DNA from: Candidatus Calditenuaceae archaeon HR02
GTDB taxonomy: Archaea; Thermoproteota; Nitrososphaeria_A; Caldarchaeales; Calditenuaceae
Direction: 5' to 3'
Length of the DNA: 64,000 bases
NCBI GenBank assembly: GCA_002898395.1
Contig: BEHE01000010.1
Span: 8,092-72,091 of the forward strand
The notes beneath the pieces are model-generated. The model saw only the letters and a list, made by a program, of their open reading frames with translations. It was not told the origin of the DNA and searched no databases. Position numbers and translations under genes: made by a program. Of the stretch, positions 10,807 to 45,976 are shown piece after piece. Within the stretch, counting starts at the first letter, position 1, and every line of letters starts with the position of its first letter.

Positions 10807-10810
10807 CTCA

Positions 10811-11977
10811 TCACACCCCTACACTCAGCACCACAGCCGCGCCCCCATCTACAACCTCACCATCAGGTGAGGCCACTATACACGAACTCCACTTGCCGGT
10901 TCTTAGCAGGTTGATGGACTGGGCCAGTCTCTGGAGCCCTGCAGCGTTTAACGGATAACCCATCCCAATACACCCACCCGAAGGATTCACCGGTAAATGA
11001 CCATCTATGTTAAAATCGCCATCCCGCAGAGACTTGCAAATGCTCTCCCTAACGACGCCTAGTGCCTCCAATACCGTCAGCTCGCTGTGGGCGAAAGGCT
11101 CTGAAATCTCTACAAAATCTATCCTCCTGAGCCTTGTCTGCTTAAAAGCCATGTTTGCCGCAGCCCTTGCCCAGCGTGACTGGCCCCACACCTTTAAAGA
11201 AAAGTCTGGCGAGTAGCTGCCCGCAGCAAATCCGAAAGCCTCAACCCGCACCTCTCCAAGGCTCCTCTCCGTGGTCAACAAGATGGCCGCAGCATACTCA
11301 CAGGGCGCTGCGACGTGACCCCTCCTTAGCGGCTCCGATATAACCTCCGTACCCTCAACCCCCTCGACAGACGTATCTTCAGCAAATGCCGCCGAAGGGT
11401 TTTTGAGAGCATTCCTCTTATTTTTGACTGCGACTAGGGAAAGGTCACTGGCCTCGCAGCCAGAGTTTGCAAGATACGCCTGTGCATCCAGTGCGGCAAT
11501 GGTATAGAAATGGGGGGTGAGTGGTCTGATAAGGTGTGGGTCGAAAGAGTTTAAAACGATTTCGGGATAGTTTAGAATATCTGAGGCCTTGGCATAGGCC
11601 GTAACTAAAATGGTTCTGAATTGCCCCGTCCTCAAAAGCATACACCCGTGGATAAACGCGTTCAAGGCGTCATTGGAGACGAGGGTGTTGAACTTTAGGC
11701 GTCCACCCACTTGGTCAGGCGTGTATGAATCAGTAATGCTCATACCCTCATAGAAATCCATGCCGCTGGAAACTATACCATCCACGTCTGCTGGTGTAAT
11801 CCCGGCGTCGAAGTAGGCTTTCACCGCAGCCCTGTACAGCATCTCCCTAAAATCCATGTCATCGTATCTTGATCTACAGGGGATTTCACCTACACCAGCA
11901 ATCCAAATGTCCATCCCAACACCCCTAGTAGGATTTTGGCAGACCCAAAACATGTCGGCCGATGTAGCTAAGCACAA
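10811..11977 (-). CDS. thiolase-like / HMG-CoA synthase-like condensing enzyme (probable real start about 11914)
   Basis: 388 aa, thiolase fold. MDIWIAGVGE at aa 22 looks like the true N-terminus and would remove the overlap with the upstream ACAD gene. Confidence 0.55.
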   Translation of the reverse strand: MCLATSADMFWVCQNPTRGVGMDIWIAGVGEIPCRSRYDDMDFREMLYRAAVKAYFDAGITPADVDGIVSSGMDFYEGMSITDSYTPDQVGGRLKFNTLVSNDALNAFIHGCMLLRTGQFRTILVTAYAKASDILNYPEIVLNSFDPHLIRPLTPHFYTIAALDAQAYLANSGCEASDLSLVAVKNKRNALKNPSAAFAEDTSVEGVEGTEVISEPLRRGHVAAPCEYAAAILLTTERSLGEVRVEAFGFAAGSYSPDFSLKVWGQSRWARAAANMAFKQTRLRRIDFVEISEPFAHSELTVLEALGVVRESICKSLRDGDFNIDGHLPVNPSGGCIGMGYPLNAAGLQRLAQSINLLRTGKWSSCIVASPDGEVVDGGAAVVLSVGV

Positions 11978-13064
11978 GCTCGTTGGTGACTGGGGCGGTT
12001 ATGAAGAGTCTTATAACTGGATAGAACGTTATAATGTCTGTGTCTATATCGTAGGCATTGCCCCCAAAGGTCTGCATCGCTATCTCAAAGGCCTCCAAAC
12101 CAGCCTCAGAGGCGACAAGCTTAGCCATGTTTGCCTCAGCTCCCACCTTTCCCCCACCGTCGAATAGTCTAGCCGCATGATAGTTCAGGGACCTGGCAGC
12201 CTCTAAATGCGCCTTGGCACGCGCCATCCTAAACTGAAGACCCTGATAAGACCCTATCGGCTTATCAAAGACAACCCTCTGCTTAGCATACTCGACAGCC
12301 CTCTTAAGGACATATTCCCCTAAACCTATACTACAGGCAGCTATCAATATTCTCTCCACATTAAGACAGTCGAAAAGATAACTGGCCCCCTTATCCGCTT
12401 CCCCTATCAGATTCTCATCGCCCAGCTCGACATCATCAAAATAAACAGTATACTGACTCTCCGGGGAATATAGCTCAATGTTAAGTGCCTCGAACGATAT
12501 TCCACTCGTGCTTGTCTCCACAATAAACAACGATATACCATCCTTCTTATCCTCAACCTCCTCGTATCTTTTCGTCCTAGCCACTATAAGCAGGTAGTCT
12601 GACTCGCGCGCGCCTGTAATGAATGTCTTCTGCCCGTTCAAGATATAGCCGCCGTCCCTCCTTTTTGCAAATGTTCTTATCCGCCAAGTATTCGAGCCGG
12701 CCTCGGCCTCCGTAATGCAAAAGCTTATCTTCTTTCCCTGCTCACATGTAGGTCTGACAAACTTTTCAAATTGCTGCTCAGTCCCATACCTATCTATTAC
12801 CGTCCTAGAGAGATGTGTTGTCAGAAATTGAAGGAGGGGTAGCCCGGCCCTCGCTAGGCCTTCCTGAACAAGGACGGCCTCCAAGAGCGCTGTGCCCGAA
12901 ACTCTTTTAACACCTACGCTTGTTAGGTTTGTCTTTAAGAGTTCCCCCCACAACAACTCAGGACTTTTCTTCTCACGAGCACAACGCAACCAATAATCCC
13001 TGCCAACAATTGTACCTATTCTTTCAGCTGTTTTAAGAATTAATACCTCCTCTTCTGAAAGCAT
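11925..13064 (-). CDS. acyl-CoA dehydrogenase
   Basis: 379 aa. ACAD middle and C-terminal domain patterns, including QTFGGNAY near the C-terminus. Confidence 0.65.
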   Translation of the reverse strand: MLSEEEVLILKTAERIGTIVGRDYWLRCAREKKSPELLWGELLKTNLTSVGVKRVSGTALLEAVLVQEGLARAGLPLLQFLTTHLSRTVIDRYGTEQQFEKFVRPTCEQGKKISFCITEAEAGSNTWRIRTFAKRRDGGYILNGQKTFITGARESDYLLIVARTKRYEEVEDKKDGISLFIVETSTSGISFEALNIELYSPESQYTVYFDDVELGDENLIGEADKGASYLFDCLNVERILIAACSIGLGEYVLKRAVEYAKQRVVFDKPIGSYQGLQFRMARAKAHLEAARSLNYHAARLFDGGGKVGAEANMAKLVASEAGLEAFEIAMQTFGGNAYDIDTDIITFYPVIRLFITAPVTNELVLSYIGRHVLGLPKSY

Positions 13065-13149
13065 ATGATTAGAAAGGCTCGGAGATAATTAAGCATTAAA
13101 ACAATATCACAAGTAGCCAATTCGCGTTGGGGATAAAAAACCTCGCAGC

Positions 13150-13746
13150 CTAGAGAGGAGTAAATATAGCCGCCCAGAACAAACGCCCTTTCTCGAACAG
13201 ATACGGCTCAAAACCTTTCTGCCTGAGGAGGGGGATGATCTCTGACGGCTCCGTGCCGTGTCCCAGCATCCTAGACGCTATTGGCTCATAAACCATGAGT
13301 AGGCTGTCTTGCTTCATCTTGCGTCTAACCTGGCTAAGCGCCCTCCCCTTATCCTCTATATGGTGGAGGCTTAGCATGAAAACAACCCTATCAGCAGACC
13401 GGTCAGGAACCCCATCCAACTCTTCAGCCCTAGCCCTCACCGGTAGTATGTTTTTTACACATAGTTTAGCAGCCCTCTGCCTAAGCTTCCATAGATATTT
13501 GTCGGAGATGTCCACTGCATAAACGAGGCCCTTGTCCCCTACTATCGATGCTGCAGGAAAGGCAAGAAAGCCAGTACCACACCCAACATCCAGCAAAACA
13601 TGCCCCTCCCTCAGCCCCATAACCCTTAACAACTTGTAGGGATCCTGAGCTAGTTTCCTCAGAGGCATTTCTAGGAAAAACCCCTCGAGCACAGACTGAG
13701 TACTAGTCACGCTGAAGTACCGGTAATATTTTCTCAAAGTAGTCAA
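13150..13746 (-). CDS. class I SAM-dependent methyltransferase (probable start about 13668)
   Basis: VLDVGCGTGFLA motif I. The longest ORF overlaps the upstream gene by 44 bp; the internal Met at aa 27 is the likelier start. Confidence 0.55.
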   Translation of the reverse strand: MTTLRKYYRYFSVTSTQSVLEGFFLEMPLRKLAQDPYKLLRVMGLREGHVLLDVGCGTGFLAFPAASIVGDKGLVYAVDISDKYLWKLRQRAAKLCVKNILPVRARAEELDGVPDRSADRVVFMLSLHHIEDKGRALSQVRRKMKQDSLLMVYEPIASRMLGHGTEPSEIIPLLRQKGFEPYLFEKGRLFWAAIFTPL

Positions 13747-15673
13747 GCGATTCGGGGTTGATCAAGGCATCCCTGTTTATAACTCTTCTTCCATTTATGA
13801 TGTTTGAAACCGCAATTTCCACCTTCTTCATGTTAAAAGTATACGGTATGTCAGGCACCTCTAAGATAATGTCGGGAACATGTCGAGGTGAGACTTTTTC
13901 CCTCAGCTCTTTTTTAATCATCTCCCTGAGCTCTTCCGTCAAAGAATATTTATCCGCCATTTTGACGAAAAGTATTATTCTTTGGTCACCCCGCCAGTTC
14001 TGCCCAACCGCTAGGCTGTCAGCTATCTCCTTGAATCTCTCAACCACACTGTAGATCTCAGCTGTCCCAATCCTAACTCCAGACTTCTTGATCACAGCGT
14101 CTGATCTCCCTAAGAAAGTAATTCCTCCCGTGTCGCTGTGGAATATGACGTAGTCCCCATGCCTCCACACCCTCTTATGAGTATAGAACCTGAAATATGC
14201 GTCAAGATATTTCTCATAGTCCGGATCGTTAAGGAAGTAAAGCGGCATAGAGGGGGCTGGAGCCTCGCAAACAAGTTCTCCTTCCCTGTCGTAAACCGGG
14301 TTCCCCTGTTCATCATAACACTTTATCTTCATGCCTAAAGCTGGTGATTGGAGTTGTCCTGCATAGACTGGTAACATCGGGCTACCTATAGCAAAGCAGC
14401 CATTGATATCGGTGCCGCCTGATATAGAGTTGAAGTGGTGATCCCTCTTAACCTCCTCATATACCCACTTAAACCCATCGGCAGACAGGGGGGAACCGGT
14501 CTGCGATATCTCCCGTAGTGTTGTGAGGTCAAAGCTTCTCCGCGGTGACGCATTCAGGCTCCTGAGATAATTGATATAGCTTGCACTGCATCCAAAAATT
14601 GAGACTTCATACTCGTCGATTAGGAGCCACATTCTCCTCCAGTCAGGATAGTTGGGGTCGCCGTCATAAAGTAGTAATGTAGCCCCTGTCGCGAGAGAAG
14701 TCATCAACCAGTTCCACATCATCCAGCTAGTAGAGGTTATGTACGTGATAGTGTCCGTTGGCTTAAGGTCTGTGTATATAATAAGCTCCTTCAAGTGATT
14801 GACAAGTATCCCTGCAACAGATTGTGCCAAGCATTTAGGCTTGCCTGTGGTCCCCGAGGTAAACATTATGTATATTGGGGTTGAGGAAGGAACTTGTGTA
14901 AATGAAAAACCATCTCCAGGCTTGGTGAAGTCGCTGTAAAGAATGGCATTCTCTACCATATCTATCTTAGGGTTCTCCTCTAGGTATGGTACAACAACCA
15001 CACATTTTATAGACGGTATATTGTCAACGATTTTCTTCACCCTCTCTAAGACATTGTATCTCTTACCCTTGTAAAAGTATCCATCTACTGTGATGAGTAC
15101 TTTAGGCGAAACCTGTCCAAACCTGTCGACCGCCGCTTCAGCCCCTATTTCTGTGCCTGTTGATGACCATGTTCCCCCCAGCGAGGCGGTCGCAAGCATG
15201 CCTACGCACGCTTCAACAGTGTTAGGAATGTATCCACATACCCTATCACCTTCTCCAACCCCCACGTCCTGCAAGTCTTTAGCCAACCCCACAACTTCAC
15301 GGTAGAGATCAAGGTAAGAAATCCTTCTTGAAAACCCATCTTCTCTAACAGCTATGATGGCTGTTTTACCATCCCTTACCCGGAGAAGGTTTTCAGCAAA
15401 GTTGAGCCTCGCACCTATAAACCATGAAGCTCCGGGAAACCTGCTCAAGTCATCAACTACTCGCCAGTAGAGCTTAGAGGCCTTGATCTCGACAAAGCTC
15501 CAGACCGCATCCCAGAATTCAGGTATATTTTCAATAGACCAGTTGTACAGCTTGAAATACGCGTATCTTTCAAACGGGTCTACTCCAAGTCCTTTCTTTC
15601 CATCGACATATTCGATGAATCGCCTCATGTTGGATTTTTCTATCACTTCTGTCGAAGGCTCCCAAAGAAGCAA
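13703..15673 (-). CDS. acetoacetyl-CoA synthetase (AMP-forming acetoacetate-CoA ligase)
   Basis: 656 aa. AMP-binding motifs TSGTTGKPK and YGTTE-like, and an N-terminal region typical of acetoacetate-CoA ligases. Confidence 0.65.
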   Translation of the reverse strand: MLLWEPSTEVIEKSNMRRFIEYVDGKKGLGVDPFERYAYFKLYNWSIENIPEFWDAVWSFVEIKASKLYWRVVDDLSRFPGASWFIGARLNFAENLLRVRDGKTAIIAVREDGFSRRISYLDLYREVVGLAKDLQDVGVGEGDRVCGYIPNTVEACVGMLATASLGGTWSSTGTEIGAEAAVDRFGQVSPKVLITVDGYFYKGKRYNVLERVKKIVDNIPSIKCVVVVPYLEENPKIDMVENAILYSDFTKPGDGFSFTQVPSSTPIYIMFTSGTTGKPKCLAQSVAGILVNHLKELIIYTDLKPTDTITYITSTSWMMWNWLMTSLATGATLLLYDGDPNYPDWRRMWLLIDEYEVSIFGCSASYINYLRSLNASPRRSFDLTTLREISQTGSPLSADGFKWVYEEVKRDHHFNSISGGTDINGCFAIGSPMLPVYAGQLQSPALGMKIKCYDEQGNPVYDREGELVCEAPAPSMPLYFLNDPDYEKYLDAYFRFYTHKRVWRHGDYVIFHSDTGGITFLGRSDAVIKKSGVRIGTAEIYSVVERFKEIADSLAVGQNWRGDQRIILFVKMADKYSLTEELREMIKKELREKVSPRHVPDIILEVPDIPYTFNMKKVEIAVSNIINGRRVINRDALINPESLDYFEKILPVLQRD

Positions 15674-16266: not shown

Positions 16267-17334
16267 TCACATTAATGGATTTTGTCCAATATTGTTTATA
16301 GTCCTAAATTCAAAGGATGGTAGGATCAGTTTTACACCACATAACTCGTCAAGTTTCCTTAAAAGGCCGGCCAGCCTCTCGTCCTTGACTAACTGCTCCA
16401 CGTTTTTTACAAGCCTTAGCGTGGTGAGGAGTTTTCGCAACATGCGCGGCCCAAAAGGTGCCATCCTAAGAGACTTGTAGAGGGTCATTCTTTCCTCGAT
16501 GCTGAAGGTTTTCCCATAGTTTTCCTTGAAATAGGTCTCCAACTCAACAAGGAGATGCTGTAAGCATTTCTCCTGACTGCTATAACCGTAGAAGCAGTTG
16601 CGACAGTTTGGTGAAAAGACCTCCCTCATTGGCCCCTGTGGTCTCCTCCGGCTATATCTCACCCGCGCTATATGGTCGGCTTTTTTGAGTCTCTGCACTA
16701 TCTTGTATATGGCCGCTATGCTCAAGCCGTAGGGCCGCATCTTCACATATATGTCCTCCACTGATACGTATATCTCTGTACAAAGGATGGACATGACTAG
16801 TTCCTCACTCCACGTGGGAATGCTTCGAAGTATAAGCTCTAAAGCCTCAACCAAATGTCTACTTCCAGCTCTCACCACTCCACCGTCGATCAGCTTTTCA
16901 CTGTCGAGCACTCTCATTAGAATCTCCCTACATTTTGCGTGGTCTATGCCACTTACTTCTGCAATCATGTCGAGCGGGATATTTTCCCATCCTTTAGCGG
17001 AAGCTATATATAGTGTAGACCAGATGACTCGAACTGTCTCGTTTCTCCAACTTTTCCTAACTATCCATAGAAAATTTCTTAGAGCTTTGAAGACCTCGTT
17101 TTTCTGAATGAGATACGATGTTGGTGAAGTTTTTTGTTTTTGCAGCCCTAGGAGGCGAATGAGGTTTTCCAGAATAATCTCCGCCTCAGAGCGGCTTGGA
17201 AAGAGGAGGAGTCTCTCATCAAACTCCTCGATCCTGTAAAGTGGTGAGTGTATGAACCGATCCTCGCTCCATGCTAATGGAGGATGTAAGGCTAGGAGAG
17301 TCATCAATAGGTTAGCTTGACCCTTGCCCCCCAC
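16267..17334 (-). CDS. hypothetical protein with cyclin-like (TFIIB-core-like) repeat; possible divergent transcription factor
   Basis: 355 aa. WSTLYIASAKGWENIPLDMIAEVSGIDHAKCREILMRV resembles the first cyclin repeat of TFB (AAALYIACR...LDEIAEV...). There is no N-terminal Zn ribbon. CRNC...C appears in the C-terminal third. Confidence 0.3.
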   Translation of the reverse strand: MGGKGQANLLMTLLALHPPLAWSEDRFIHSPLYRIEEFDERLLLFPSRSEAEIILENLIRLLGLQKQKTSPTSYLIQKNEVFKALRNFLWIVRKSWRNETVRVIWSTLYIASAKGWENIPLDMIAEVSGIDHAKCREILMRVLDSEKLIDGGVVRAGSRHLVEALELILRSIPTWSEELVMSILCTEIYVSVEDIYVKMRPYGLSIAAIYKIVQRLKKADHIARVRYSRRRPQGPMREVFSPNCRNCFYGYSSQEKCLQHLLVELETYFKENYGKTFSIEERMTLYKSLRMAPFGPRMLRKLLTTLRLVKNVEQLVKDERLAGLLRKLDELCGVKLILPSFEFRTINNIGQNPLM

Positions 17335-17443: not shown

Positions 17444-17746
17444 ATGCCGATAACGATTTGTTGGGCCTTGTCGGCTCAAGCTTTGAAAATATTGCGTGAA
17501 CCGATTAACCTAGCTTTGTTCCGGAGACCGTTGGGGCGGGTCTATGTTATACCTGAGAGGTGTAAAGAGTGTGGGTTTTGCTGGAGTTTCTGCCCCATGG
17601 ACGTTCTCGAGCGGTCTGACGAGTTCAATCCAAATGGATATAGGTATCCTAAAGTCAAGTCAGGGAAGGAAAACGACTGCGTCAATTGTAAGATGTGTAG
17701 CCTGATATGCCCTGAGCTAGCCATCTACACAGTTGAGGTGAGCTAG
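17444..17746 (+). CDS. 2-oxoacid:ferredoxin oxidoreductase delta subunit (2x[4Fe-4S] ferredoxin)
   Basis: CKECGFCWSFCP and CVNCKMCSLICP cluster motifs. The TATA box at 17431-17438 is too close to the annotated ATG, so an in-frame TTG at 17492 may be the real start. Confidence 0.65.
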   Translation: MPITICWALSAQALKILREPINLALFRRPLGRVYVIPERCKECGFCWSFCPMDVLERSDEFNPNGYRYPKVKSGKENDCVNCKMCSLICPELAIYTVEVS

Positions 17747-17750
17747 CAGT

Positions 17751-18896
17751 ATGAGTAGCGGCTTGCCGAGGCCTGGTGTCCACTTCATGATGGGAAACTT
17801 CGCCTGTGTCGAGGCTGCCATACTTGCCGGGTGTAGGTTCTTCGCAGGATATCCCATCACTCCCTCCAGCGAGATCTTCGAGAGGGCTTGTGTAAGGTTT
17901 CCACAGGTCGGAGGGATAGCCGTTGAGATGGAGGATGAGATGGCGAGCGTGGCCGCCCTTATCGGCGCATCTTATGCAGGGGCCAAAGCTATGACTGCTA
18001 CGTCCGGCCCTGGTTTCAGCTTGATGATGGAGAACATAGGATTGGCGTTCATAATGGAGGCGCCAATAGTGATCGTCAACGTTCAGAGGGCGGGGCCAAG
18101 CACCGGAATCCCCACTCTGATAGGACAGGGTGACGTTATGCAGGCTAGATGGGGTTCTCACGGGGACATTGAGACAGTAGTCTACTCTCCCAGCAGCGTC
18201 CAAGAGTTCTTCGACCTAACAATTCAGGCATTTAATACGGCGGAAAGACTCCGCACACCCGTCATCGTGCTGACTGACCAGCTAGTAGGGCTGATGTGGG
18301 AGAAAGTAGTCATTCCATCACCTGAGGAGGTGAAAGTCGTGGAGAGAAAGATTATGGATGCGCGGCTCCTCTCTACGAGGCTACCATTCGACTACACTGT
18401 AGACGTAAATCCAATGCCTATAGTGGGGACGGGCTGCAGAGTAAACATTGACAGCCTCACGCATGATGAGAGAGGCTACCCGACCACATCCCAAGAGATT
18501 TCTGAAAAAATGCTTCGATATCTACTCGGCAAGATTAGGAACCACGCCCGTGAGCTTTGGCTGTATAAGGAATTCATGATCGATGATGCAGAGGTGGTTG
18601 TGGTTGCCTATGGATCTACGGCTAGGTCGGCCTTGAATGCTGTTAAGCAGGCCCGTTCACGGGGGATTAAGGCTGGGTTACTTCAGCTCATCACCCTATG
18701 GCCCTTCCCGAGCGATGTGATTGAGAAGGTAAGCCAGCACGTCAACGCCCTCGTAGTGCCTGAGATAAACTTCGGCCAGCTCGTACACCCCATCAGGGAG
18801 TACGCCAAATGCCCAATCCTAGAGGTTAACTGGGCTCCAGGCAGTCTGATAGAACCGAACGTCATCTTAGACGCCGTGGGGGTGGCTGCGGCGTGA
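17751..18896 (+). CDS. 2-oxoacid:ferredoxin oxidoreductase alpha subunit
   Basis: 381 aa. GNFACVEAAILAGCRFFAGYPITPSSEI is a classic POR/KOR alpha N-terminus. Confidence 0.8.
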   Translation: MSSGLPRPGVHFMMGNFACVEAAILAGCRFFAGYPITPSSEIFERACVRFPQVGGIAVEMEDEMASVAALIGASYAGAKAMTATSGPGFSLMMENIGLAFIMEAPIVIVNVQRAGPSTGIPTLIGQGDVMQARWGSHGDIETVVYSPSSVQEFFDLTIQAFNTAERLRTPVIVLTDQLVGLMWEKVVIPSPEEVKVVERKIMDARLLSTRLPFDYTVDVNPMPIVGTGCRVNIDSLTHDERGYPTTSQEISEKMLRYLLGKIRNHARELWLYKEFMIDDAEVVVVAYGSTARSALNAVKQARSRGIKAGLLQLITLWPFPSDVIEKVSQHVNALVVPEINFGQLVHPIREYAKCPILEVNWAPGSLIEPNVILDAVGVAAA

Positions 18897-19744
18897 CCCA
18901 GGTAGTCAAGGCCCGGCGCCATCCCAGGGATAGCCTATTACGAAGTGAGAGGCTTCCGCACATTTGGTGCCCCGGATGTGGCATCGGCATAATCATGGCC
19001 GCCTATGCAGACGCCATAGAGGCATCAGGTATTCCACCTGAGAAGCATGTCTGCATCTCCGGAATAGGCTGTACTGGGAGGGTTTCCGGCTACATGCATC
19101 TCGACTCATTCCATACGACACATGGCCGAGCCATAGCCTTCGCCACAGGCCTATCTCTTGTGAGGCCTGACCTGGAGGTCACCGTCATCTCAGGTGATGG
19201 GGACATCTGTACGATAGGTGGGAACCATTTGATACATGCTGCTAGGAGGAACGTCGACATCAACGTGATAATGGTAAACAACTTCAACTATGGTATGACG
19301 GGGGGCCAGCACGGCGGTACCACACCCCTCGGAGCAAAGACATACACATCACCTTACGGCAATTTTGAAGCCCCATTCAACATACCCTATCTAGTGGCCG
19401 CTGCAGGAGCCTCGTTCGTGGCTAGATGGACGACCCTACACGTAAGGCAGCTGATCAATGCAATGAAGCGCATGATGAGTGTGGAGGGTTTCTCTTTCAT
19501 TGAGGTCATATCGCCTTGTCCACCCACGTTCGGCGAGTTCAACAACTTTCCTGAAGCCCTCGATATGATGGAGTACTTCAGGAAGTATTCGGTGATAGAC
19601 CATAATGCCGATCTAAGCAAGATAGGCATACGCCTCCAAGGCGAGCCACTGGTTGTCGGAAACTTCGTTGACAAGAGGAGGCCGAGCTACCAGGAGCTTG
19701 TGCAGGAAACTATCAGAAAAGCTGCCGGGAGGGAGAGCGTTTGA
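18893..19744 (+). CDS. 2-oxoacid:ferredoxin oxidoreductase beta subunit (TPP-binding)
   Basis: WCPGCG N-terminal motif and GDGD...IGGNH TPP-binding region. 4-nt overlap with the alpha subunit. Confidence 0.8.
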   Translation: MTQVVKARRHPRDSLLRSERLPHIWCPGCGIGIIMAAYADAIEASGIPPEKHVCISGIGCTGRVSGYMHLDSFHTTHGRAIAFATGLSLVRPDLEVTVISGDGDICTIGGNHLIHAARRNVDINVIMVNNFNYGMTGGQHGGTTPLGAKTYTSPYGNFEAPFNIPYLVAAAGASFVARWTTLHVRQLINAMKRMMSVEGFSFIEVISPCPPTFGEFNNFPEALDMMEYFRKYSVIDHNADLSKIGIRLQGEPLVVGNFVDKRRPSYQELVQETIRKAAGRESV

Positions 19745-20298
19745 GACACGAGGTTAGGATCACAGGGCTAGGTGGCCAAGGGGCCATAACGGCTGGTCAT
19801 ATACTTGGAAGAGCCGCGGCAATATACGGAGACAAGGAAGCAGTAGTGACTGAGGGCTACAGCCCATACATAACCGGCGGCTGGTCGAGAGCCGACGTAA
19901 TAATCTCCGACGAACCCATAGACTACCCGCTTATCACCAAGCTAGACGTCTTAGCCACAATGTATGATGAAGGTTTTGTTCAAAACCTTAGACACGTCAA
20001 AAGCAGAGGTGTAATAATAACCGTGAAAGAGCTAGTCAAACATTCTTCAAAGGATCACAAGGTTTTGCCGATACCTGCCATCGAGGTAGCTGAGCAGTTA
20101 GGAAGAAGGATAGTCGCTAATATCGTGATACTCGGGGCCATAACTGCTGTCTTGGGTACACCACCCCTAGAGTCGGTTGAGAAGGCACTGGCCGACAGGT
20201 TTCCAAAGGCGGTTGAGCTTAACCGCAAAGCTGTACAACAAGGCTACAGCATAGCATCTGAGCTGCTCGCAAGCACAGATGTTTTGGAGGAGAGGTGA
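19741..20298 (+). CDS. 2-oxoacid:ferredoxin oxidoreductase gamma subunit
   Basis: 185 aa. ITGLGGQGAITAGHILGRAA is the gamma-subunit GGQG motif. Confidence 0.75.
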   Translation: MRHEVRITGLGGQGAITAGHILGRAAAIYGDKEAVVTEGYSPYITGGWSRADVIISDEPIDYPLITKLDVLATMYDEGFVQNLRHVKSRGVIITVKELVKHSSKDHKVLPIPAIEVAEQLGRRIVANIVILGAITAVLGTPPLESVEKALADRFPKAVELNRKAVQQGYSIASELLASTDVLEER

Positions 20299-23200
20299 AA
20301 GGGCTGGCAGACGCTGTCCTGGTTATAGGAGGCGGGATAGCGGGGGTTCAGGCATCACTCGACCTAGCCAAGGCCGGTGCCAAGGTCTACCTTGTCGAAA
20401 AAAGTCCCGTGATAGGAGGGCGGATGGCTGCACTAGACAAAAACTTCCCCACCATGGATTGCTCGATCTGTATAGAGGCACCCAAGCTAAGCGAGGTGAT
20501 GCAGAACAAAAACATCAAGGTCTTAACGCTGGCGGAGGTCGTTGAAGCTCGAGGCGAGGCTGGAAACTTTCACGTAAAAGTTGTCCAGAAGCCCCGCTTC
20601 GTCACTGATGAATGTACGAGGTGCGGTGACTGTGTGCCCGCATGCCCAGTCATACTGAAGAACGAGTTTGATGTAGGGATGGGTGCTAGGAAGGCTATAT
20701 ACCTCCCCTTCGACCAAGCCGAGCCGGGGACGTACGTAATAGACATTGAGAACTGTTTAAACAAGCCGCCCAACTATCTGCCCTGTAACAGATGTGTCGA
20801 GGCATGCGGGCCAAAATGCATAGATTTCGAGATGAAAGAGAAAATCCATGAACTGAATGTGGGCGCAATAATAGTTGCAGCTGGCTCGGACCTCTTCGAC
20901 GCCTCATTAATTCCGGAGCTAGGCTATGGAAGACACCCCGACATCCTCACAGCAATGGAACTCGAAAGACTTCTACAATCGAGTGGCCCCTCAAGGGGCG
21001 AGGTCATAAAGCCCAGCAACCACCGCCACCCAGAAAGAGTAGCGTTCATCCTATGCGTGGGGGCTCGCGACAATAGGTTTTATGGTTTCTGTAGCAGGGT
21101 CTGCTGCATGTACAGCATCAAGGAGGCGTTGCAGCTTGTTGACCATGGAATCAAAGATGTCACGGTCTTCTACATGGATATAAGAGCTTATGGAAAAGGC
21201 TTCGACGAGATGTTTGAGAGAGCGAAGAAGAGTGGTGTCAGGTTTATACGAAGCAGGCCTGGAAGAGTTATACCCAATGGTGACCGCATAGAGGTATTCT
21301 ATGAGGACACGACTACTGGAGAGTTAAGGAAAGAAACTTTTGACATGGTTGTCCTTTCAACAGCTCTCGTACCATCAGAAGAGTTAAACAGGTTAGCTAA
21401 AACCTTGGGGATAGAGGTGGGCGAAGATGGCTTCATCAAAGCATATGAAATAGACGGAGACTTCGTCGGGACATCGAGGAGGGGGATATATGTCTGTGGC
21501 TGCGCAGCCGGTCCTAAAGACATTCCTGACAGCGTTACAGAGGCCGGTGCGGCTGCTGCAAAAGCGCTAACCCATCTGACTTCAAGGGTCGTAGAGCCTG
21601 AAATCTTCGAGGAGACCATAGACGCCTCGGGGGAGCCCCGGATCGGTGTATTCATCTGCCATTGTGGCTCCAACATAGCGGGAGTGGTTGATATAAAAAC
21701 TGCCGTTGAGCAGTCCAAGAAAATACCCTATGTAGTGCATGTAGAAGACCAGAAATTCTCGTGCTCTGGAGCGGGTACGAAGCATATAGAGAACGTGATA
21801 AGGGAGAAGAGGCTTAACAGGGTTGTTGTGGCGGCCTGCTCGCCGAAGACTCATAGCCCAACCTTCATGAGAGCCTGTGCCAGGGCTGGACTTAACCCAT
21901 ACCTCCTGGAGATGGCTAACATACGCAACCTTAACTCATGGGTCCACAAAAACCAGCCAGAAGAGGCCACAAGAAAAGCTATAGACCTAATCTCTATGGC
22001 GGTTGCTAAAGTGGTCTTACAAAACCCAATGACCAAGCTATCAACCCCCGTCCTGCAAAAGGTCCTAGTCATAGGAGGGGGTGTGGCTGGGATGACTGCC
22101 GCCACTGCCCTCGCAGAGATGGGATTCGAGACACATCTAGTTGAGAAGGAACATGAGCTGGGCGGTCTCCTCAGATATTTCAGAGAAATTGCTCCATCCG
22201 GCATAGATGCCCAGAGCTTCTTGCAATGGAAGATAAAACAGCTGGAGAAATCAGGTGCCAAGATTCATCTGGGTACAGAGGTAGCCGAGGTAACGGGTTT
22301 CGTCGGAAACTATCATGTTACACTTTCTAACGGAGAGGAACTCGATGTAGGCGCCATAATATTGGCCACAGGAGGTAAGGTTCACGAGCCAAGCTGGCCC
22401 AAAATAGAAGCCGATAAGCCAAGGGTCGCGACGCTACTCAGATACGAGATAGATGGCGTCCCAGAAGACGCTAGAAACATAGTCTTCATAGGATGTGTGG
22501 GTTCAAGAAACATGATCAGGGGATGCTCAAGATATTGCTGCCAAACCATCATTTATCATGCCCTCAAGCTTAGGAGAAGTGGCAAGAACGTCTCAGTAAT
22601 TGTCAAAGATGTCAGGACCTATGGGAGGGGGGCTGAGAAGCTGTATAGGAAAGCCTGCGAAGAGGGTGTGAGGTTTATCAGAGTGGAGACAGAGAAGCCA
22701 ATTGAAGACCTTGTTCGAATAGGAGAAGAAGGCATAACAGTACGAGACATCACAATTGGAGAGACACTAAACATACCCGCAGACTACATCGTTCTGGCCA
22801 CGGCCATAGACCCTCCTGCAGAGATAGCGGCGGCCCAGCAGCTCAGAGTCGCCAAGGACTCGGAGGGATTCTTCCTCGAACTCCACCCGAAGCTGGGGCC
22901 TGTCGAATCGATAACACAGGGCGTCTTCCTCGCAGGTATCGCCCAAGGACCCAAAGATGTTGGGGAGAGCATTTCGCAGGGATTGGCCGCCTCAGCAAAG
23001 GCAGCCGCACTGCTCACATCATCACAGCTTGAGAAAGAGCCCTTAATCCCAATCATAAATCCGCAAAAATGTACAAAATGTATGAGGTGCGCCCAGGTCT
23101 GCCCATATGGTGCGATTAAGGGCGAGCTGAGGAAATGGATAGAGATTATACCGGGCCTCTGCCAGGGATGTGGCGCATGTGTTTCTGAGTGCAATGTTGA

Positions 23201-23681
23201 AGGAGCTATAACAATGCCAGGATTCACGGATGAGCAATTGATGGCGCAAATAGATGCGGCGTTAGCCGAAAACCCAGAAGAGAAGGCGATAGTTTTCGCA
23301 TGTAATTGGTGCAGCTACGCCGGCGCAGACTTGGCCGGCATCCTCAAAATACAGTACCCGCCAACATGCCGGGTTATACGCACAATGTGCTCTGCAAGAG
23401 TCTCGCAGAAGCTTATTCTATACGCATTCAAAAAAGGCGCAGGTGCCGTCTTCGTCACAGGATGCTGGCCACAAGACTGCCACTACAACTATGCCAACCT
23501 CAACACAAAGAGGCGTTACGAACACTGGCTCAAAATAGTACAGGCCAGAAACATAGACCCAAAGAGACTCCAGCTCCACTGGATAAGCGCCGCCGAGGCC
23601 AAGAGATTTGCAGAGAAAATGACAGAGGCCCATGAGGTCGTAATGAGTTTGAAGAAGGATAAGATGCGGGTGGGTGGCTAA
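20295..23681 (+). CDS. hdrA: tandem-duplicated HdrA-like flavoprotein fused to C-terminal MvhD-like domain
   Basis: 1128 aa. Two FAD dinucleotide motifs (VIGGGIAG at aa about 10; VIGGGVAGM at aa about 577). Two HdrA signatures, CVGARD-x8-CSRVCC and CVGSRN-x5-CSRYCC. Several CxxCxxCxxxCP ferredoxin motifs. A C-terminal approximately 130 aa MvhD-like domain (FACNWCSYAGADLAG...). Confidence 0.7.
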   Translation: MKGLADAVLVIGGGIAGVQASLDLAKAGAKVYLVEKSPVIGGRMAALDKNFPTMDCSICIEAPKLSEVMQNKNIKVLTLAEVVEARGEAGNFHVKVVQKPRFVTDECTRCGDCVPACPVILKNEFDVGMGARKAIYLPFDQAEPGTYVIDIENCLNKPPNYLPCNRCVEACGPKCIDFEMKEKIHELNVGAIIVAAGSDLFDASLIPELGYGRHPDILTAMELERLLQSSGPSRGEVIKPSNHRHPERVAFILCVGARDNRFYGFCSRVCCMYSIKEALQLVDHGIKDVTVFYMDIRAYGKGFDEMFERAKKSGVRFIRSRPGRVIPNGDRIEVFYEDTTTGELRKETFDMVVLSTALVPSEELNRLAKTLGIEVGEDGFIKAYEIDGDFVGTSRRGIYVCGCAAGPKDIPDSVTEAGAAAAKALTHLTSRVVEPEIFEETIDASGEPRIGVFICHCGSNIAGVVDIKTAVEQSKKIPYVVHVEDQKFSCSGAGTKHIENVIREKRLNRVVVAACSPKTHSPTFMRACARAGLNPYLLEMANIRNLNSWVHKNQPEEATRKAIDLISMAVAKVVLQNPMTKLSTPVLQKVLVIGGGVAGMTAATALAEMGFETHLVEKEHELGGLLRYFREIAPSGIDAQSFLQWKIKQLEKSGAKIHLGTEVAEVTGFVGNYHVTLSNGEELDVGAIILATGGKVHEPSWPKIEADKPRVATLLRYEIDGVPEDARNIVFIGCVGSRNMIRGCSRYCCQTIIYHALKLRRSGKNVSVIVKDVRTYGRGAEKLYRKACEEGVRFIRVETEKPIEDLVRIGEEGITVRDITIGETLNIPADYIVLATAIDPPAEIAAAQQLRVAKDSEGFFLELHPKLGPVESITQGVFLAGIAQGPKDVGESISQGLAASAKAAALLTSSQLEKEPLIPIINPQKCTKCMRCAQVCPYGAIKGELRKWIEIIPGLCQGCGACVSECNVEGAITMPGFTDEQLMAQIDAALAENPEEKAIVFACNWCSYAGADLAGILKIQYPPTCRVIRTMCSARVSQKLILYAFKKGAGAVFVTGCWPQDCHYNYANLNTKRRYEHWLKIVQARNIDPKRLQLHWISAAEAKRFAEKMTEAHEVVMSLKKDKMRVGG

Positions 23682-24821
23682 ATGTACCGGAGCCTTTCAG
23701 AGCTTTTCACCGACAGGGTATTGGCCGAAAGCATCACAGCCTGCTTCCAGTGCGGAGCATGCACAGCAGCCTGCCCCCTCAACATCTTCGACGGCCTAAA
23801 ACTAAGTCCAAGACAGTTTCTCCGAAGGATGCAACTAGGCCTACCCATAAACATCGAGCCGTATCTCTGCATGATGTGCAAAGCCTGCGAAACAGTCTGT
23901 CCGCGAAATGTTAAAATCACAAAAATAATTCACGAGCTAAGAAAAATCTGGTTTAGGAACAATAGAGTCCCCACGCCTCTCACTCAAGCGCTCTGGAAGA
24001 TCTATGAGGATGGAAATCCGTGGGGCTACCCGTCACGGACAAGAGGCCAGTGGCTCGATAAGCTAGACGTAAACATATCTAAGAAGAAGGGCGAAACACT
24101 CCTCTATGTCGGATGCATCTCATCTTACGATATACGCCTCCAGGGGATAGCAACTGCTATCGTAAAACTTTTACTTAAAGCGGAGGTTGATTTCACAGTT
24201 CTCGGTGATGAAGAGAGGTGTTGCGGGGACCCAGTATACCATACGGGCGAAACAGACTTCTTAGAGGAGTTGATCAACGAAAACATAGCCAAATTCAACT
24301 CCGTGGGTGTGAGAAGAATAGTAGCCCTCTCTCCCCACTGCTACATTATGTTCCGGGATATCTATCCCAAGTATGGAGGTGAATATGAAGTCCTTCACTA
24401 CACAGAGTATCTTGCAGAACTCATAGACTCTGGAAAACTATCAATCGATACACGATTAGAAGCTAGAGCAACCTATCATGACCCATGCTATTTAGGTAGA
24501 TATGCTAAGATATACGAGCAGCCGCGAAGACTGGTAGAGAGCGTTAAAGGACTCTCATTTTCGGAGATGAGCCTCTCAAAAGAACTATCACTCTGCTGTG
24601 GTGGAGGAGGGGGACGGATACTGATGGAGTCAAAACCCGAGGAAAGGCCCTCAAACATAAGAGTCAAACAGGCAGTTGAGACGGGGGCAGAAATCCTGCT
24701 AACTTCGTGCCCCTACTGCATAATAAACTTCGAAGACTCCGCAAAGATCCAGAAAGCGCCCCTCAAGGTAATGGATGTTGCAGAGCTTCTACAAGCTGCA
24801 GCAGGTGGTCAAGATGGGTGA
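23682..24821 (+). CDS. hdrD: HdrD-like protein (2x[4Fe-4S] ferredoxin + two CCG domains; GlcF/HdrBC-fusion type)
   Basis: CFQCGACTAACP and CMMCKACETVCP motifs, then CCGDP and CCGGGGG CCG-domain signatures. Starts immediately after the hdrA stop. Confidence 0.7.
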   Translation: MYRSLSELFTDRVLAESITACFQCGACTAACPLNIFDGLKLSPRQFLRRMQLGLPINIEPYLCMMCKACETVCPRNVKITKIIHELRKIWFRNNRVPTPLTQALWKIYEDGNPWGYPSRTRGQWLDKLDVNISKKKGETLLYVGCISSYDIRLQGIATAIVKLLLKAEVDFTVLGDEERCCGDPVYHTGETDFLEELINENIAKFNSVGVRRIVALSPHCYIMFRDIYPKYGGEYEVLHYTEYLAELIDSGKLSIDTRLEARATYHDPCYLGRYAKIYEQPRRLVESVKGLSFSEMSLSKELSLCCGGGGGRILMESKPEERPSNIRVKQAVETGAEILLTSCPYCIINFEDSAKIQKAPLKVMDVAELLQAAAGGQDG

Positions 24822-25785
24822 GATCTGGTCTTTTGTGGAAGTAGGGCCCGAAGGGATCGAAGCCGTGTCACTGGAGATAATCGGTAAAGCGGCTGAGCTT
24901 GGGGATCAGAGCAACATGAGAACAGCTGCAGTCCTAACGGGGTGGGGAATGGAAAAAATTGTCAAAGAAGTCTCAAGATACCCAGTCGATAGGGTGTACT
25001 ATGTTGAACATGGCGAGTTGGCCTTTTACGATCCGGCGAAACACGCAAATGCCCTACACCAACTGGTTGAAAAGGAGAAACCCGAGATAGTGCTCTTCGG
25101 AGCGACATATAATGGAGTCGACATAGCCGCTAGGTTGGCCATTAGGGCTGAAGCAGGCCTAATAGCTCATGTGACATACCTCGGCATAGACCCCTCAGAC
25201 GGAAGGCTCGTAGGACATGTACCAGGATTCGGTGGAGGCATCGTAGCAGTCTGCAAATGCAGGCCAGGCGTTCTACAGATAGCCACAGTGAGGCCGGGGG
25301 TTTTCGAGAGACCAATCCCAACAGGACATGAGGCGGAGATCCATAGGTTTAGCCCGAAGCTCCACCCAACGAATGGGTGGAGAATCGTCGAGAGACGTGT
25401 AGCGAAGGTGGTGGACATTACGCGGGCTGAAAAAGTCGTCGTGGCGGGCATGGGGACGGGTGGAGAACTCTCCCTCGCTAAGACGCTCGCTCAGAAGTTG
25501 GGCGCACAACTGGCGGTGACAAGGCCTCTAGCAGACTTGGGGCTCGCTCCCAGAGACGTCCAAGTAGGCTCCACTGGCGTCAGCCTAAGATCCAATATAG
25601 CTTTAATCCTTGGAGTGAGTGGGGCATCACACTTCGTCTCAGGAATACGGGATGTGAAAACAGTAATCTCGATCAATATTGACAGAAATGCGCCAATATT
25701 CCAGTTCTCCGACTACTGTGTAGAGGCCGACCTCTTCAAACTAGTCCCAAAGATTATTGAAGAGTTTGAGAAGGAGGGTGCATAA
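24814..25785 (+). CDS. etfA: electron transfer flavoprotein alpha subunit (start at ATG 24814, ATGA-type overlap with hdrD)
   Basis: N-terminal Etf domain, and a C-terminal FAD-binding region (LAVTRPLADLG...) typical of EtfA/FixB. Confidence 0.7.
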   Translation: MGEIWSFVEVGPEGIEAVSLEIIGKAAELGDQSNMRTAAVLTGWGMEKIVKEVSRYPVDRVYYVEHGELAFYDPAKHANALHQLVEKEKPEIVLFGATYNGVDIAARLAIRAEAGLIAHVTYLGIDPSDGRLVGHVPGFGGGIVAVCKCRPGVLQIATVRPGVFERPIPTGHEAEIHRFSPKLHPTNGWRIVERRVAKVVDITRAEKVVVAGMGTGGELSLAKTLAQKLGAQLAVTRPLADLGLAPRDVQVGSTGVSLRSNIALILGVSGASHFVSGIRDVKTVISINIDRNAPIFQFSDYCVEADLFKLVPKIIEEFEKEGA

Positions 25786-26568
25786 ATGGAGATAGTAGTG
25801 TGTGTTAAGGTTGTTCCGAAGGTCGAGCAAGTCAGATTGGACCCTATAACCAAAACCGTAGATAGGACATCTGCTGAGAACGAGCTTAACGACGCTGATA
25901 AAAACGCCGTCGAGGCTGCGCTACAACTAAAAGACAGATATGGCAGCAGGGTCACGGTGCTATCAATGGGGCCGCTATTCTTCGAGCCTCTCCTAAAACT
26001 GTGTGTGGCTATGGGTGCTGACGATGCGATACTCCTCTCCGACAAGGCCTTCGCAGGTGCAGACACCTACGCGACATCATACGTCTTAGCCCAGGCCATA
26101 AAGAGGCTAAGACCGGACATAATCCTCTGCGGCGAAAGCACCTCCGACTCAGGGACTGCCCAGGTTCCTCCCCAAATAGCAGAGTGGCTCGGATACCCGA
26201 ACATCTCCTACGTATCACACATCAGCATAGAGGATAGAGTTGTAGTGGCTAAACGCACAGTAAAAGGCGGATACGAAGTAGTGAAAGTACCATTACCTGT
26301 AGTTATGTCGGTAGAGCTAGGAAGCAACACGCCGAGATTCCCTGACTTTAAGAGAAAGAGATGGGCCGAACGAGAATTCAAAATAACCATATGGACCGCT
26401 AACGACCTCGAGCTAGACCTAAACCTCACGGGCAAGACAGGGTCAAAGACAGAAGTAATAGAGCTCCACCCAATAGCACCACCACAGAGGCTGAGAAAGT
26501 TTCTAGAGGGTTCAGAAGAAGAAAAAGCGAGGGCAATCATAAAAATAATCAGAGAGTCAAAAGGCTAA
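25786..26568 (+). CDS. etfB: electron transfer flavoprotein beta subunit
   Basis: MEIVVCVKVVP... N-terminus and CGESTSDSGTAQV motif typical of EtfB/FixA. Starts 1 nt after the etfA stop. Confidence 0.7.
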   Translation: MEIVVCVKVVPKVEQVRLDPITKTVDRTSAENELNDADKNAVEAALQLKDRYGSRVTVLSMGPLFFEPLLKLCVAMGADDAILLSDKAFAGADTYATSYVLAQAIKRLRPDIILCGESTSDSGTAQVPPQIAEWLGYPNISYVSHISIEDRVVVAKRTVKGGYEVVKVPLPVVMSVELGSNTPRFPDFKRKRWAEREFKITIWTANDLELDLNLTGKTGSKTEVIELHPIAPPQRLRKFLEGSEEEKARAIIKIIRESKG

Positions 26569-44427: not shown

Positions 44428-44431
44428 CGCA

Positions 44432-45953: not shown

Positions 45954-45976
45954 GTTATAAATGCGTGGTTAACGTG

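Follow-up and report, generated by a model that had tools for sequence, protein, structure and literature searches.

Can an HdrA dimer be built into one polypeptide together with its electron-entry adaptor MvhD, and would the two halves of such a chain be equivalent? This question is raised by a gene of Candidatus Calditenuaceae archaeon HR02 (Caldarchaeales). It lies at 20295-23681 of the stretch analysed here, which comprises 64,000 nucleotides of contig BEHE01000010.1 (assembly GCA_002898395.1, contig positions 8,092 to 72,091, forward strand). We refer to this whole stretch as the window, and all coordinates are those of the window. An earlier note, made from the sequence alone, had taken the gene product for an internal tandem duplication of two complete HdrA cores fused to MvhD. 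Our analysis leads to a less symmetrical picture. In our judgement, the protein is probably an asymmetric, single-chain HdrA pseudo-dimer with a fused MvhD domain, which would form the core of a soluble, eight-subunit module together with a 2-oxoacid:ferredoxin oxidoreductase (OFOR), an HdrD-like protein and the electron transfer flavoprotein (ETF) EtfAB.

Two HdrA units and an MvhD domain in one chain

The gene opens with a GTG codon behind a GGAGGAG ribosome-binding site, and there is a 4-nt overlap with the stop codon of the preceding gene. Its product contains two dinucleotide motifs, VIGGGIAG (residues 10-17) and VIGGGVAGM (residues 592-600). Each is followed by an HdrA-type Cys signature, C254-VGARD-x6-C266-SRV-C270-C271 in the part that we call unit 1 and C734-VGSRN-x4-C744-SRY-C748-C749 in unit 2. 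The earlier note had recognised both pairs of motifs, as well as the change from Asp to Asn in the second signature (D259 versus N739); the spacers, which it had counted as 8 and 5 residues, are in fact 6 and 4. It was also right about the MvhD domain at the C-terminus, which is matched by the Pfam family FlpD (PF02662, residues 999-1119, E = 2e-41). In phmmer searches, this region aligns with the solved MvhD chains 5odc_D (5ODC) and 8rvu_F (8RVU) at E values of about 1e-33. Self-alignment of the two halves by BLASTP (residues 1-460 against residues 461-1128) gave 34% identity over 254 residues (E = 7e-26), and the segment with the flavin adenine dinucleotide (FAD) motif was matched as well (E = 9e-10). 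The internal repeat claimed by the note is thus real and far above chance.

The chain was searched with phmmer against all solved structures, with HdrA of Methanothermococcus thermolithotrophicus (5ODC_A) as the reference. Unit 1, unit 2 and 5ODC_A were then compared in a three-way alignment, for which the 5ODC_A sequence was rebuilt from the phmmer alignments. Three stretches match the reference: residues 3-378 correspond to HdrA 141-515, residues 447-618 to HdrA 3-174 (E = 1e-51) and residues 852-989 to HdrA 510-649. Unit 1 (about residues 1-446) spans HdrA 139-581 and is 46% identical to 5ODC_A. Unit 2 (about residues 447-995) spans HdrA 3-649 minus a 79-residue inserted domain, at 40% identity. 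In the alignment with 5ODC_A, unit 1 has neither the N-terminal domain nor the C-terminal ferredoxin domain, while unit 2 has no inserted ferredoxin domain, no Cys at the positions of HdrA Cys194 and Cys197, and Y754 at the position of Lys409. A full set of the four HdrA domains is therefore found in neither unit, with the N- and C-terminal domains accompanying unit 2 only and the inserted ferredoxin domain unit 1 only. The chain is laid out as follows; BamE is the HdrA-like subunit of the class II benzoyl-CoA reductase (BCRII) of Geobacter metallireducens.

20295-23681, forward strand: HdrA (unit 1)-HdrA (unit 2)-MvhD fusion gene, 1128 residues in a single unbroken frame of 3387 nt
20295-21614, forward strand: thioredoxin-reductase-like FAD domain 1 of unit 1, residues 1-440, with the four-Cys motif C254, C266, C270, C271 (alignment)
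20460-20471, forward strand: C56-S-I-C59, aligned with HdrA Cys194/Cys197 and corresponding to the BamE pair Cys59-Cys62, in unit 1 only (roles as described in PMC9012536 and in the BCRII preprint, bioRxiv 10.64898/2026.04.10.717634)
20592-20846, forward strand: inserted 2x[4Fe-4S] ferredoxin domain, residues 100-184, in unit 1 only, with C107, C110, C113, C117 and C154, C164, C167, C171
21120-21122, forward strand: K276, aligned with HdrA Lys409, the lysine at the flavin N5 that marks a bifurcating FAD
21633-22049, forward strand: homolog of the HdrA N-terminal domain in mid-chain, residues 447-585, with C455, C457, C490, C515 (phmmer)
22050-23030, forward strand: second thioredoxin-reductase-like FAD domain, in unit 2, residues 586-912, with the four-Cys motif C734, C744, C748, C749
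23031-23264, forward strand: C-terminal 2x[4Fe-4S] ferredoxin domain, residues 913-990, with eight Cys (Pfam Fer4 at residues 918-975; aligned with 5ODC_A 568-649)
23277-23654, forward strand: MvhD/FlpD domain, residues 995-1120, presumed to hold a [2Fe-2S] cluster, with C1003, C1006, C1032, C1057, C1062

The whole chain carries seven [4Fe-4S] motifs, one [2Fe-2S] motif and two FAD sites, and each accessory domain occurs once. As read from the alignment, the two units are unequal and complementary copies of HdrA. The claim of two complete HdrA cores has to be given up, because a true HdrA dimer would have twelve [4Fe-4S] motifs. The broader idea of the note, a dimer-like HdrA and its electron-entry adaptor in one chain, holds: the HdrA core is present twice, each time with its four-Cys motif, and MvhD is fused to it. 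Nor did the second half turn out to belong to another flavoprotein family that has lost most of the ligands, the outcome that the note itself had named as fatal to its reading. Unit 2 is clearly HdrA.

How general this arrangement is can be read from the homologs. A whole-database search listed 120 clusters at 53-100% identity, from Caldarchaeales, other Nitrososphaerota, Thermoplasmata, Heimdall archaea, Rokubacteria, Armatimonadota and Elusimicrobia. Full-length members of 1112-1166 residues with the same architecture make up 118 of these, and residue conservation was taken from an alignment of the 118. Such a distribution leaves little room for the trivial explanation that adjacent hdrA genes and an mvhD gene were joined by an error in sequencing or assembly. 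The raw material for such an error exists elsewhere, in the form of unfused tandem hdrA pairs (PMC9012536) and of separate mvhD genes, such as that in a locus from Chloroflexia (L018). However, the frame is unbroken over its 3387 nt, further fused proteins occur among the representatives of the wider superfamily, and 118 of the 120 listed clusters share length and architecture across independent assemblies. We therefore take the fusion to be no assembly artefact, and attach practically no weight to this explanation.

Invariant in all 118 homologs are C56, C59, D259, K276, the four-Cys motif of unit 1 and the eight Cys of the inserted domain. The same holds for the four Cys of the N-terminal domain, the eight of the C-terminal ferredoxin domain and the five of MvhD. 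In the four-Cys motif of unit 2, three positions (C744, C748, C749) never vary, and a Cys at C734 is kept by 117 of the 118. Cluster Cys number 32 in the chain, with 28 in the seven [4Fe-4S] motifs and four of the five in MvhD. The counterpart of K276 in unit 2 (Y754) is G, N, Q, S or Y, and in none of the 118 is it Lys. Since the dinucleotide residues G594, G596, G599 and E617 of unit 2 are invariant, the second FAD is probably still bound.

These data bear directly on the view that the protein is a covalent homodimer plus MvhD, made of two complete HdrA cores that are equivalent and each possess all clusters and a bifurcating flavin. The two GxGxxG motifs, the two CVGxR[DN]-xn-CSRxCC motifs, the significant likeness of the halves and the invariant dinucleotide residues of unit 2 would all fit it. 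On the other hand, the missing domains, Cys pair and Lys409 counterpart are missing in every one of the 118 homologs, and the cluster count falls short by five. In BamE, moreover, cryo-electron microscopy places the bifurcating FAD, with Lys280 and Cys59-Cys62, in the N-terminal unit, and the second FAD is reported to be non-bifurcating (10.64898/2026.04.10.717634). From its position alone, we infer that K276 is the equivalent of BamE Lys280. We consider the symmetrical homodimer very improbable. As judged by sequence, unit 1 is the flavin site with all the hallmarks of bifurcation (K276, C56/C59, the four-Cys cluster and the inserted ferredoxin domain), and unit 2 is a degenerate second flavin domain that supplies the N-domain cluster, the C-terminal ferredoxin domain and MvhD. 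Each chain would then probably hold one bifurcating flavin.

The Cys pair of unit 1 also marks an insertion site. Orthologs from metagenome-assembled genomes (MAGs) of Candidatus Caldarchaeum (L005 and L013, 10001-14947) contain an intein of ~470 residues (Pfam intein-splicing and LAGLIDADG domains), which brings the intein-bearing ortholog P0004 to 1602 residues. It sits directly before the Cys equivalent to C59 (...MDCSI | C-intein...VSN | CIEAPK), and so within the CxxC pair by the bifurcating flavin. Inteins usually occupy the most conserved functional sites.

An AlphaFold2 model of the whole chain, built from 53 sequences, has a mean predicted local distance difference test (pLDDT) of 86.4 and a predicted TM-score (pTM) of 0.89, which makes the predicted relative placement of the domains confident. 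The best Foldseek matches of the model are HdrA chains. The 427-residue chain 8rvu_a (TM 0.92, 47% identity) is presumably matched by unit 1, and a full-length HdrA chain (TM 0.76, 34% identity) presumably by unit 2. Among solved chains, neither the PDB sequences nor the Foldseek library, up to April 2026, contained one with two HdrA units.

How might such a chain have arisen? The internal tandem duplication proposed earlier is unlikely, at least as a recent event, since the units are 46% and 40% identical to HdrA and only 33% to each other in the three-way alignment. We favour the fusion of two long-diverged paralogs, because each unit is nearer to canonical HdrA than to its partner and unfused, complementary hdrA gene pairs are known (PMC9012536).

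In the HR02 record, the fusion protein was deposited under the product name 'Cinnamate reductase', and its homologs appear as 'hydrogenase iron-sulfur subunit', 'FAD-dependent oxidoreductase' or 'HdrA'. We dismiss the cinnamate reductase label as a mis-annotation, for which the evidence gives no support.

The eight-gene operon

The partners of the fusion protein are suggested by its surroundings. Its gene takes fifth place in a tight row of eight, which are joined by 4-nt overlaps or zero spacing and form a 9.1-kb operon (17444-26568, forward strand):

17444-17746, forward strand: OFOR delta subunit, a 2x[4Fe-4S] ferredoxin, first gene (Pfam Fer4 and Fer4_7; best NCBIfam match OGOR_delta, below its cut-off)
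17751-18896, forward strand: OFOR alpha subunit (POR_N, PFOR_II and Transketolase_C; NCBIfam NF006412, '2-oxoacid:acceptor oxidoreductase subunit alpha', 501 bits versus a cut-off of 411)
18893-19744, forward strand: OFOR beta subunit, thiamine pyrophosphate-binding, with a 4-nt overlap with the alpha gene (TPP_enzyme_C; best NCBIfam match 2-oxoglutarate ferredoxin oxidoreductase beta, below its cut-off)
19741-20298, forward strand: OFOR gamma subunit, with a 4-nt overlap with both neighbours (PF01558 POR; NCBIfam gamma-subunit models)
20295-23681, forward strand: the fusion gene
23682-24821, forward strand: soluble HdrD-like protein, an HdrC+HdrB fusion of 379 residues (two Pfam CCG domains and Fer4)
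24814-25785, forward strand: EtfA, the large ETF subunit (Pfam ETF and ETF_alpha)
25786-26568, forward strand: EtfB, the small ETF subunit, of bifurcating type by sequence (motif GADTYATS and 'zipper' D-S-G-T-A-Q)

The best sub-threshold NCBIfam matches of the OFOR subunits are of the 2-oxoglutarate type. All 22 family loci examined keep the eight genes co-linear and in the same orientation, with exceptions only at contig ends. These loci carry seven phylum-level lineage labels, as given by record or protein titles, to which the archaeal metagenome contig L027 is added, and they represent both domains. They include five named Caldarchaeales genera and related MAGs, Nitrososphaerales, Thermoplasmata, Kariarchaeaceae (Heimdall group), Rokubacteria, Armatimonadota and Elusimicrobia. 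We found no description of an OFOR-HdrA-HdrD-EtfAB cluster in the literature searched, which leaves out most subscription journals; papers on D. autotrophicum and Culexarchaeia treat other Hdr/Etf contexts.

Several features were seen around the operon. A divergent open reading frame of 355 residues (16267-17334, reverse strand), which has no Pfam or NCBIfam match, is kept at the same position in all Caldarchaeales loci (25-91% identity) and was not seen in the other phyla. A second, two-subunit OFOR (fused alpha-gamma plus beta) lies 2-3 kb downstream of the operon in two loci of Nitrososphaerota type (L026, 18100-20707; L027, 19132-22066). A further four-subunit OFOR, a distant paralog at 27-33% identity, lies upstream in several loci of Caldarchaeales. 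In the Chloroflexia MAG (L018, 467-14433), the OFOR genes are followed by a 1095-residue HdrA with an NfnB/GltD-like insertion and by further GltD-like and HdrA proteins. This locus also encodes a free-standing MvhD and an HdrD-like protein, as well as an HdrA that is split into a 209-residue piece and a 658-residue piece with MvhD, and it has no ETF genes. Its NfnB/GltD-like NAD(P)H modules hint that a link to pyridine nucleotides belongs to the theme.

The HdrD-like protein encoded next to the fusion gene has two invariant [4Fe-4S] motifs and, in its sequence, no hydrophobic or transmembrane segment. The first of its two CCG motifs is degenerate (C145, C180, C181, S217, C220): S217 stands where a Cys would be expected, and only 14 of the 22 orthologs have Cys at the position of C220. 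The second (C269, C305, C306, C343, C346) is complete and invariant in the 22 orthologs. Its nearest solved relative is the mycobacterial EtfD (9OJN, E = 2e-50), followed at a distance by HdrC (1e-12) and HdrB (5e-5).

This protein is central to another possibility, namely that the operon encodes a genuine disulfide reductase of the HdrA2B2C2 type, in which the CCG clusters reduce a heterodisulfide or some other disulfide, and OFOR (via ferredoxin) and ETF only donate electrons. The complete and invariant second CCG motif is in line with this, as is the MvhD fusion, which is typical of Methanosarcina HdrA2. The fusion protein also scores above the cut-off of the HdrA2 model NF040770 (1149 versus 1100 bits). 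However, this score is summed over three stretches, of which the best aligns residues 7-442 with profile positions 141-574, and the cut-off is passed only because stretches from two HdrA units add up; the protein does not match HdrA2 as one co-linear whole. Further, the first CCG motif is degenerate, the HdrD-like protein is 45 orders of magnitude nearer in E value to EtfD than to HdrB, and the heterodisulfide site is blocked in the subunit BamD of BCRII. Taken together, a disulfide reductase appears rather improbable. The host lineages are not known to be methanogens, which also counts against it.

The last two genes encode the ETF. The reading frame of etfA opens at 24775, which would give a 47-nt overlap with the HdrD-like gene. 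Because the alignments to solved ETFs begin at Met14 (24814), the real start is probably there, with an overlap of 8 nt. The best solved relatives of EtfA are all bifurcating ETFs (6FAH, 5OL2, 7KOE, 7QH2, 4KPU), and for both subunits all five of these outrank all canonical ones; for EtfB, the E values are 1e-38 to 1e-49 for bifurcating versus 1e-12 to 1e-25 for canonical ETFs. The GADTYATS motif of EtfB carries both Thr of the second FAD site. The zipper has the consensus DGDTAQ in bifurcating and DDDxNQ in canonical ETFs (PMC8958531); EtfB matches the bifurcating consensus at 4 of 6 positions and has none of the extra Asp or Asn of the canonical one. These bifurcating motifs are retained in most orthologous loci. 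By its sequence, EtfAB thus qualifies as a bifurcating (group 2) ETF.

Just upstream of the operon, the reverse strand carries acyl-CoA genes (8993-15673). They encode an Acs-like AMP-forming ligase (13703-15673), a methyltransferase, an acyl-CoA dehydrogenase (11925-13064), two thiolase-like proteins and a DUF35/ChsH2 OB-fold protein. Of these, the acyl-CoA dehydrogenase could be a partner of the ETF. In Rokubacteria (L022), too, the cluster is flanked by an AMP-binding gene.

Electron paths and reaction schemes

How would electrons move through such a module? By analogy with HdrA and BamE, C59 would complete the N-domain cluster (C455, C457, C490, C515), as HdrA Cys197 does for the partner subunit. 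Electron pairs may move between an external partner and the FAD of unit 1 via the C-terminal ferredoxin domain and the [2Fe-2S] cluster of MvhD. From there, the high-potential electron would pass through the four-Cys cluster of unit 1 and then, in the HdrD-like protein, through two cubane clusters and the CCG clusters before it reaches ETF. The route of the other, low-potential electron would lead over the N-domain cluster with C56/C59 and end in the inserted ferredoxin domain. In the arrangement that we prefer, which is suggested by the gene context, the ferredoxin subunit of OFOR would dock on one of the two ferredoxin-like ports. The couple of 2-oxoacid and acyl-CoA + CO2 (about -500 mV) would thereby be tied, by bifurcation or confurcation, to ETF and to NADH at ETF.

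Several schemes may be considered, among them a NADH-driven 2-oxoacid synthase whose sink is ETF and quinone, a confurcation in which electrons of OFOR and ETF meet on a partner at the MvhD port, and an uncoupled wire. Every closed reaction written with only OFOR, NADH at the ETF and the HdrA flavin either comes down to uncoupled 2-oxoacid:NAD+ transfer or calls for an external sink or source, and we therefore assign no net reaction.

The uncoupled wire deserves attention in its own right. Here, the module would be a 2-oxoacid:ETF or 2-oxoacid:NAD+ oxidoreductase, in which low-potential electrons from the 2-oxoacid run downhill to ETF or NAD+ and from there enter the respiratory chain, with the flavins acting as mere converters between one- and two-electron transfer. 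The hosts look like respiring heterotrophs, with an N2O-reductase cluster in the window and another beside the operon in one locus (L024), and a third redox partner is not encoded in the cluster. In addition, an uncoupled 'short circuit' from reduced ferredoxin to ETF has been described for BCRII in vitro (10.64898/2026.04.10.717634). Yet the bifurcation Lys, the Cys pair and the three-branch wiring with MvhD are invariant across both domains, which is hard to square with a simple wire, and far simpler ferredoxin:NAD(P)+ reductases exist. We think a non-bifurcating wire unlikely.

The pseudo-dimer at the core of a soluble module thus remains our preferred reading, and several points weigh against it. 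Apart from a possible NADH site on ETF, nothing in the operon is an obvious mid-potential partner, donor or acceptor, for the MvhD port, and there is no membrane or quinone module. A search of the window at 0.6-30 kb and 40-54 kb for a donor module (hydrogenase, FrhB/FdhB, NuoEF/HydBC) found none, and the related loci conserve no such module either. Each closed reaction scheme is merely exergonic (2-oxoacid to NAD+) or requires a partner encoded elsewhere. Gene adjacency, from which the physical complex is deduced, is no proof of it. For an HdrA-dimer-like packing of the two units, the pTM of the predicted model is the sole argument. The likeness to BamE, BamD and BamF is drawn from residue numbers and from descriptions in a preprint that is not peer reviewed. 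Finally, in an exhaustive search of the wider superfamily at the level of 50%-identity representatives, 94 proteins of 930-1200 residues were collected, and 57 of these keep the Lys in unit 2. A single bifurcating flavin therefore holds for the family of close homologs and is no general rule.

More tentatively, we suggest that the eight proteins may form a soluble, self-contained and so far unrecognised supercomplex, spread by horizontal transfer among Caldarchaeales, other Nitrososphaerota, Thermoplasmata, Heimdall archaea and a number of bacterial phyla, in which OFOR is wired to two bifurcation modules in series, the HdrA pseudo-dimer with MvhD and, via the EtfD/BamD-like subunit, ETF. If so, the supercomplex could couple 2-oxoacid/acyl-CoA at -500 mV to NAD(H) and to ETF or quinone. 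It could then act as a NADH-driven 2-oxoacid synthase, or as an energy-coupled feed of OFOR electrons into respiration. To our knowledge, the link of OFOR to NAD(H), ETF and the respiratory chain is still poorly understood in aerobic and facultative archaea. With OFOR, the HdrA module, an ETF-accepting HdrD-like protein and a bifurcating-type ETF in translational coupling, the operon offers a concrete and clonable candidate for this link.

Other genes of the window were noted in passing. The N2O-reductase (nos) cluster occupies 41460-48028 on the reverse strand and comprises a NosZ-like propeller protein (45977-48028), a cupredoxin (45486-45953), NosD (43102-44427) and ABC/ABC-2 transporter genes (41460-43105); the nos cluster directly beside the eight-gene cluster in L024 (1-3593) is from an Armatimonadota MAG. 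Elsewhere in the window lie genes for a GH78 alpha-L-rhamnosidase (3245-6004, reverse strand), an ADP-ribosylglycohydrolase (5966-7369, forward strand) and a large molybdopterin subunit of the xanthine-dehydrogenase/CoxL family (51520-53817, forward strand).

Comparison with known systems

The HdrD-like protein resembles the EtfD/EMO-type ETF:menaquinone oxidoreductases (9OJN, PMC13083937), which also combine two [4Fe-4S] clusters with two CCG domains, the first of them non-canonical. EtfD takes electrons from ETF via these clusters, and its cluster cavity is occluded (PMC13083937). In contrast, EtfD has five transmembrane helices, a haem and a quinone site, whereas the protein described here has no hydrophobic segment and its gene adjoins that of an HdrA.

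Canonical HdrA of the HdrABC-MvhAGD complexes (5ODC, 8RVU, 7BKB) contains the same four domains and all the same ligands once, together with FAD, Lys409 and Cys197. It is, however, a subunit of 650 residues, two copies of which pair symmetrically as a homodimer with both flavins active, and its MvhD is a separate protein. Its four-Cys motif (Cys386, 399, 403, 404) has counterparts in both of our units, while Lys409 and Cys197, which completes the N-domain cluster of the partner, have counterparts in unit 1 only. HdrA2 of Methanosarcina acetivorans HdrA2B2C2 likewise has MvhD at its C-terminus, and its model (NF040770) is the top NCBIfam match of the fusion protein. Unlike the latter, HdrA2 has a single HdrA unit (profile length 777, ~780 residues), and its partners are HdrB2C2 instead of an HdrD-like protein, ETF and OFOR.

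Two HdrA units in one polypeptide, which the earlier note had held to be new, are in fact known. HdrA genes in tandem or fused form in anaerobic methanotrophic (ANME) archaea (HdrA3/HdrA4), and the HdrA of the Moorella MetFV-HdrABC-MvhD complex, were described by Chadwick et al. 2022 (PMC9012536). In these proteins, Cys197 and the N-terminal domain are lost in a complementary fashion, and self-contained heterodimers were proposed. The protein from HR02 shares with them the two units per polypeptide, the complementary loss and the interpretation as a built-in heterodimer. The order differs: in ANME HdrA3/4 and Moorella, the unit with the N-terminal domain and without Cys197 comes first and the Cys197 unit second, which is reversed here. 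The gene context differs as well, with HdrBC, FdhAB-like and MetFV proteins that are unlike the operon of HR02.

The closest parallel is BamE, whose cryo-electron microscopy structure was described as a 'fused HdrA dimer' with a domain permutation (bioRxiv 10.64898/2026.04.10.717634). According to the same preprint, the clusters of BamE are E1-E7, of which E1 and E2 belong to the C-terminal ferredoxin-like domain, whereas the inserted one houses E5 and E6. BamF is an MvhD-like adaptor, and BamD is HdrD-like, with a disrupted distal CCG cluster and a blocked heterodisulfide site. ETF docks on BamD as the high-potential acceptor. The fusion protein has the same permuted order: unit 1 with the Cys pair, the Lys and the inserted domain, and unit 2 with the N-domain before it and a C-terminal ferredoxin domain after it. 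The residue numbers are nearly identical (K276 and C56/C59 versus Lys280 and Cys59/62), there are seven [4Fe-4S] motifs, and the second flavin would lack the hallmarks of bifurcation, with Y754 in unit 2. Like BamD, the HdrD-like neighbour has a degenerate first CCG motif, and EtfAB is encoded by the next two genes. Because residue numbers, cluster count and partners agree, the fusion protein reads as a BamE-type dimer with the adaptor joined on. In turn, the operon would lend independent genomic support to the recent cryo-tomography result that ETF partners BamD-like subunits.

The differences from the Bam system are equally clear. BamF is a separate, longer and selenocysteine-containing protein, whereas MvhD is fused at the C-terminus here. 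BamB (of the tungsten aldehyde-oxidoreductase family), BamC and BamGHI (a NADH/ferredoxin module) were not found; no aldehyde-oxidoreductase or NuoEFG/HydBC-like genes occur at 13.7 to 30 kb of the window or in the 22 related loci. Instead, a four-subunit OFOR is encoded upstream, and genes for an ETF of bifurcating type lie inside the operon. The hosts are mostly archaea and bacteria that do not degrade aromatic compounds. Two relatives from Desulfobacteraceae (L015 and L016, 42% identity, no MvhD) were considered as Bam clusters and rejected, as their neighbours are NarI-like/CCG proteins or PyrK-like iron-sulfur flavoproteins.

Among the 94 representatives of the wider superfamily, about 60-70 show the same distribution of features, so that the fused and permuted layout is common, and only seven have the MvhD fusion. 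The fused HdrA-HdrA arrangement is thus already known, and the form with MvhD is a widespread but minor variant of it. The protein from HR02 adds a further example of an HdrA dimer that appears hard-wired as an asymmetric chain and keeps a single bifurcating flavin. With MvhD included, it would be the most compact HdrA bifurcation core seen in this analysis, and from Aigarchaeota to Rokubacteria it is preserved at identities of 53-100%. What sets it apart from the systems described in the literature searched is not the HdrA-HdrA fusion itself, but the operon that links this fusion to OFOR and to an ETF of the bifurcating type.

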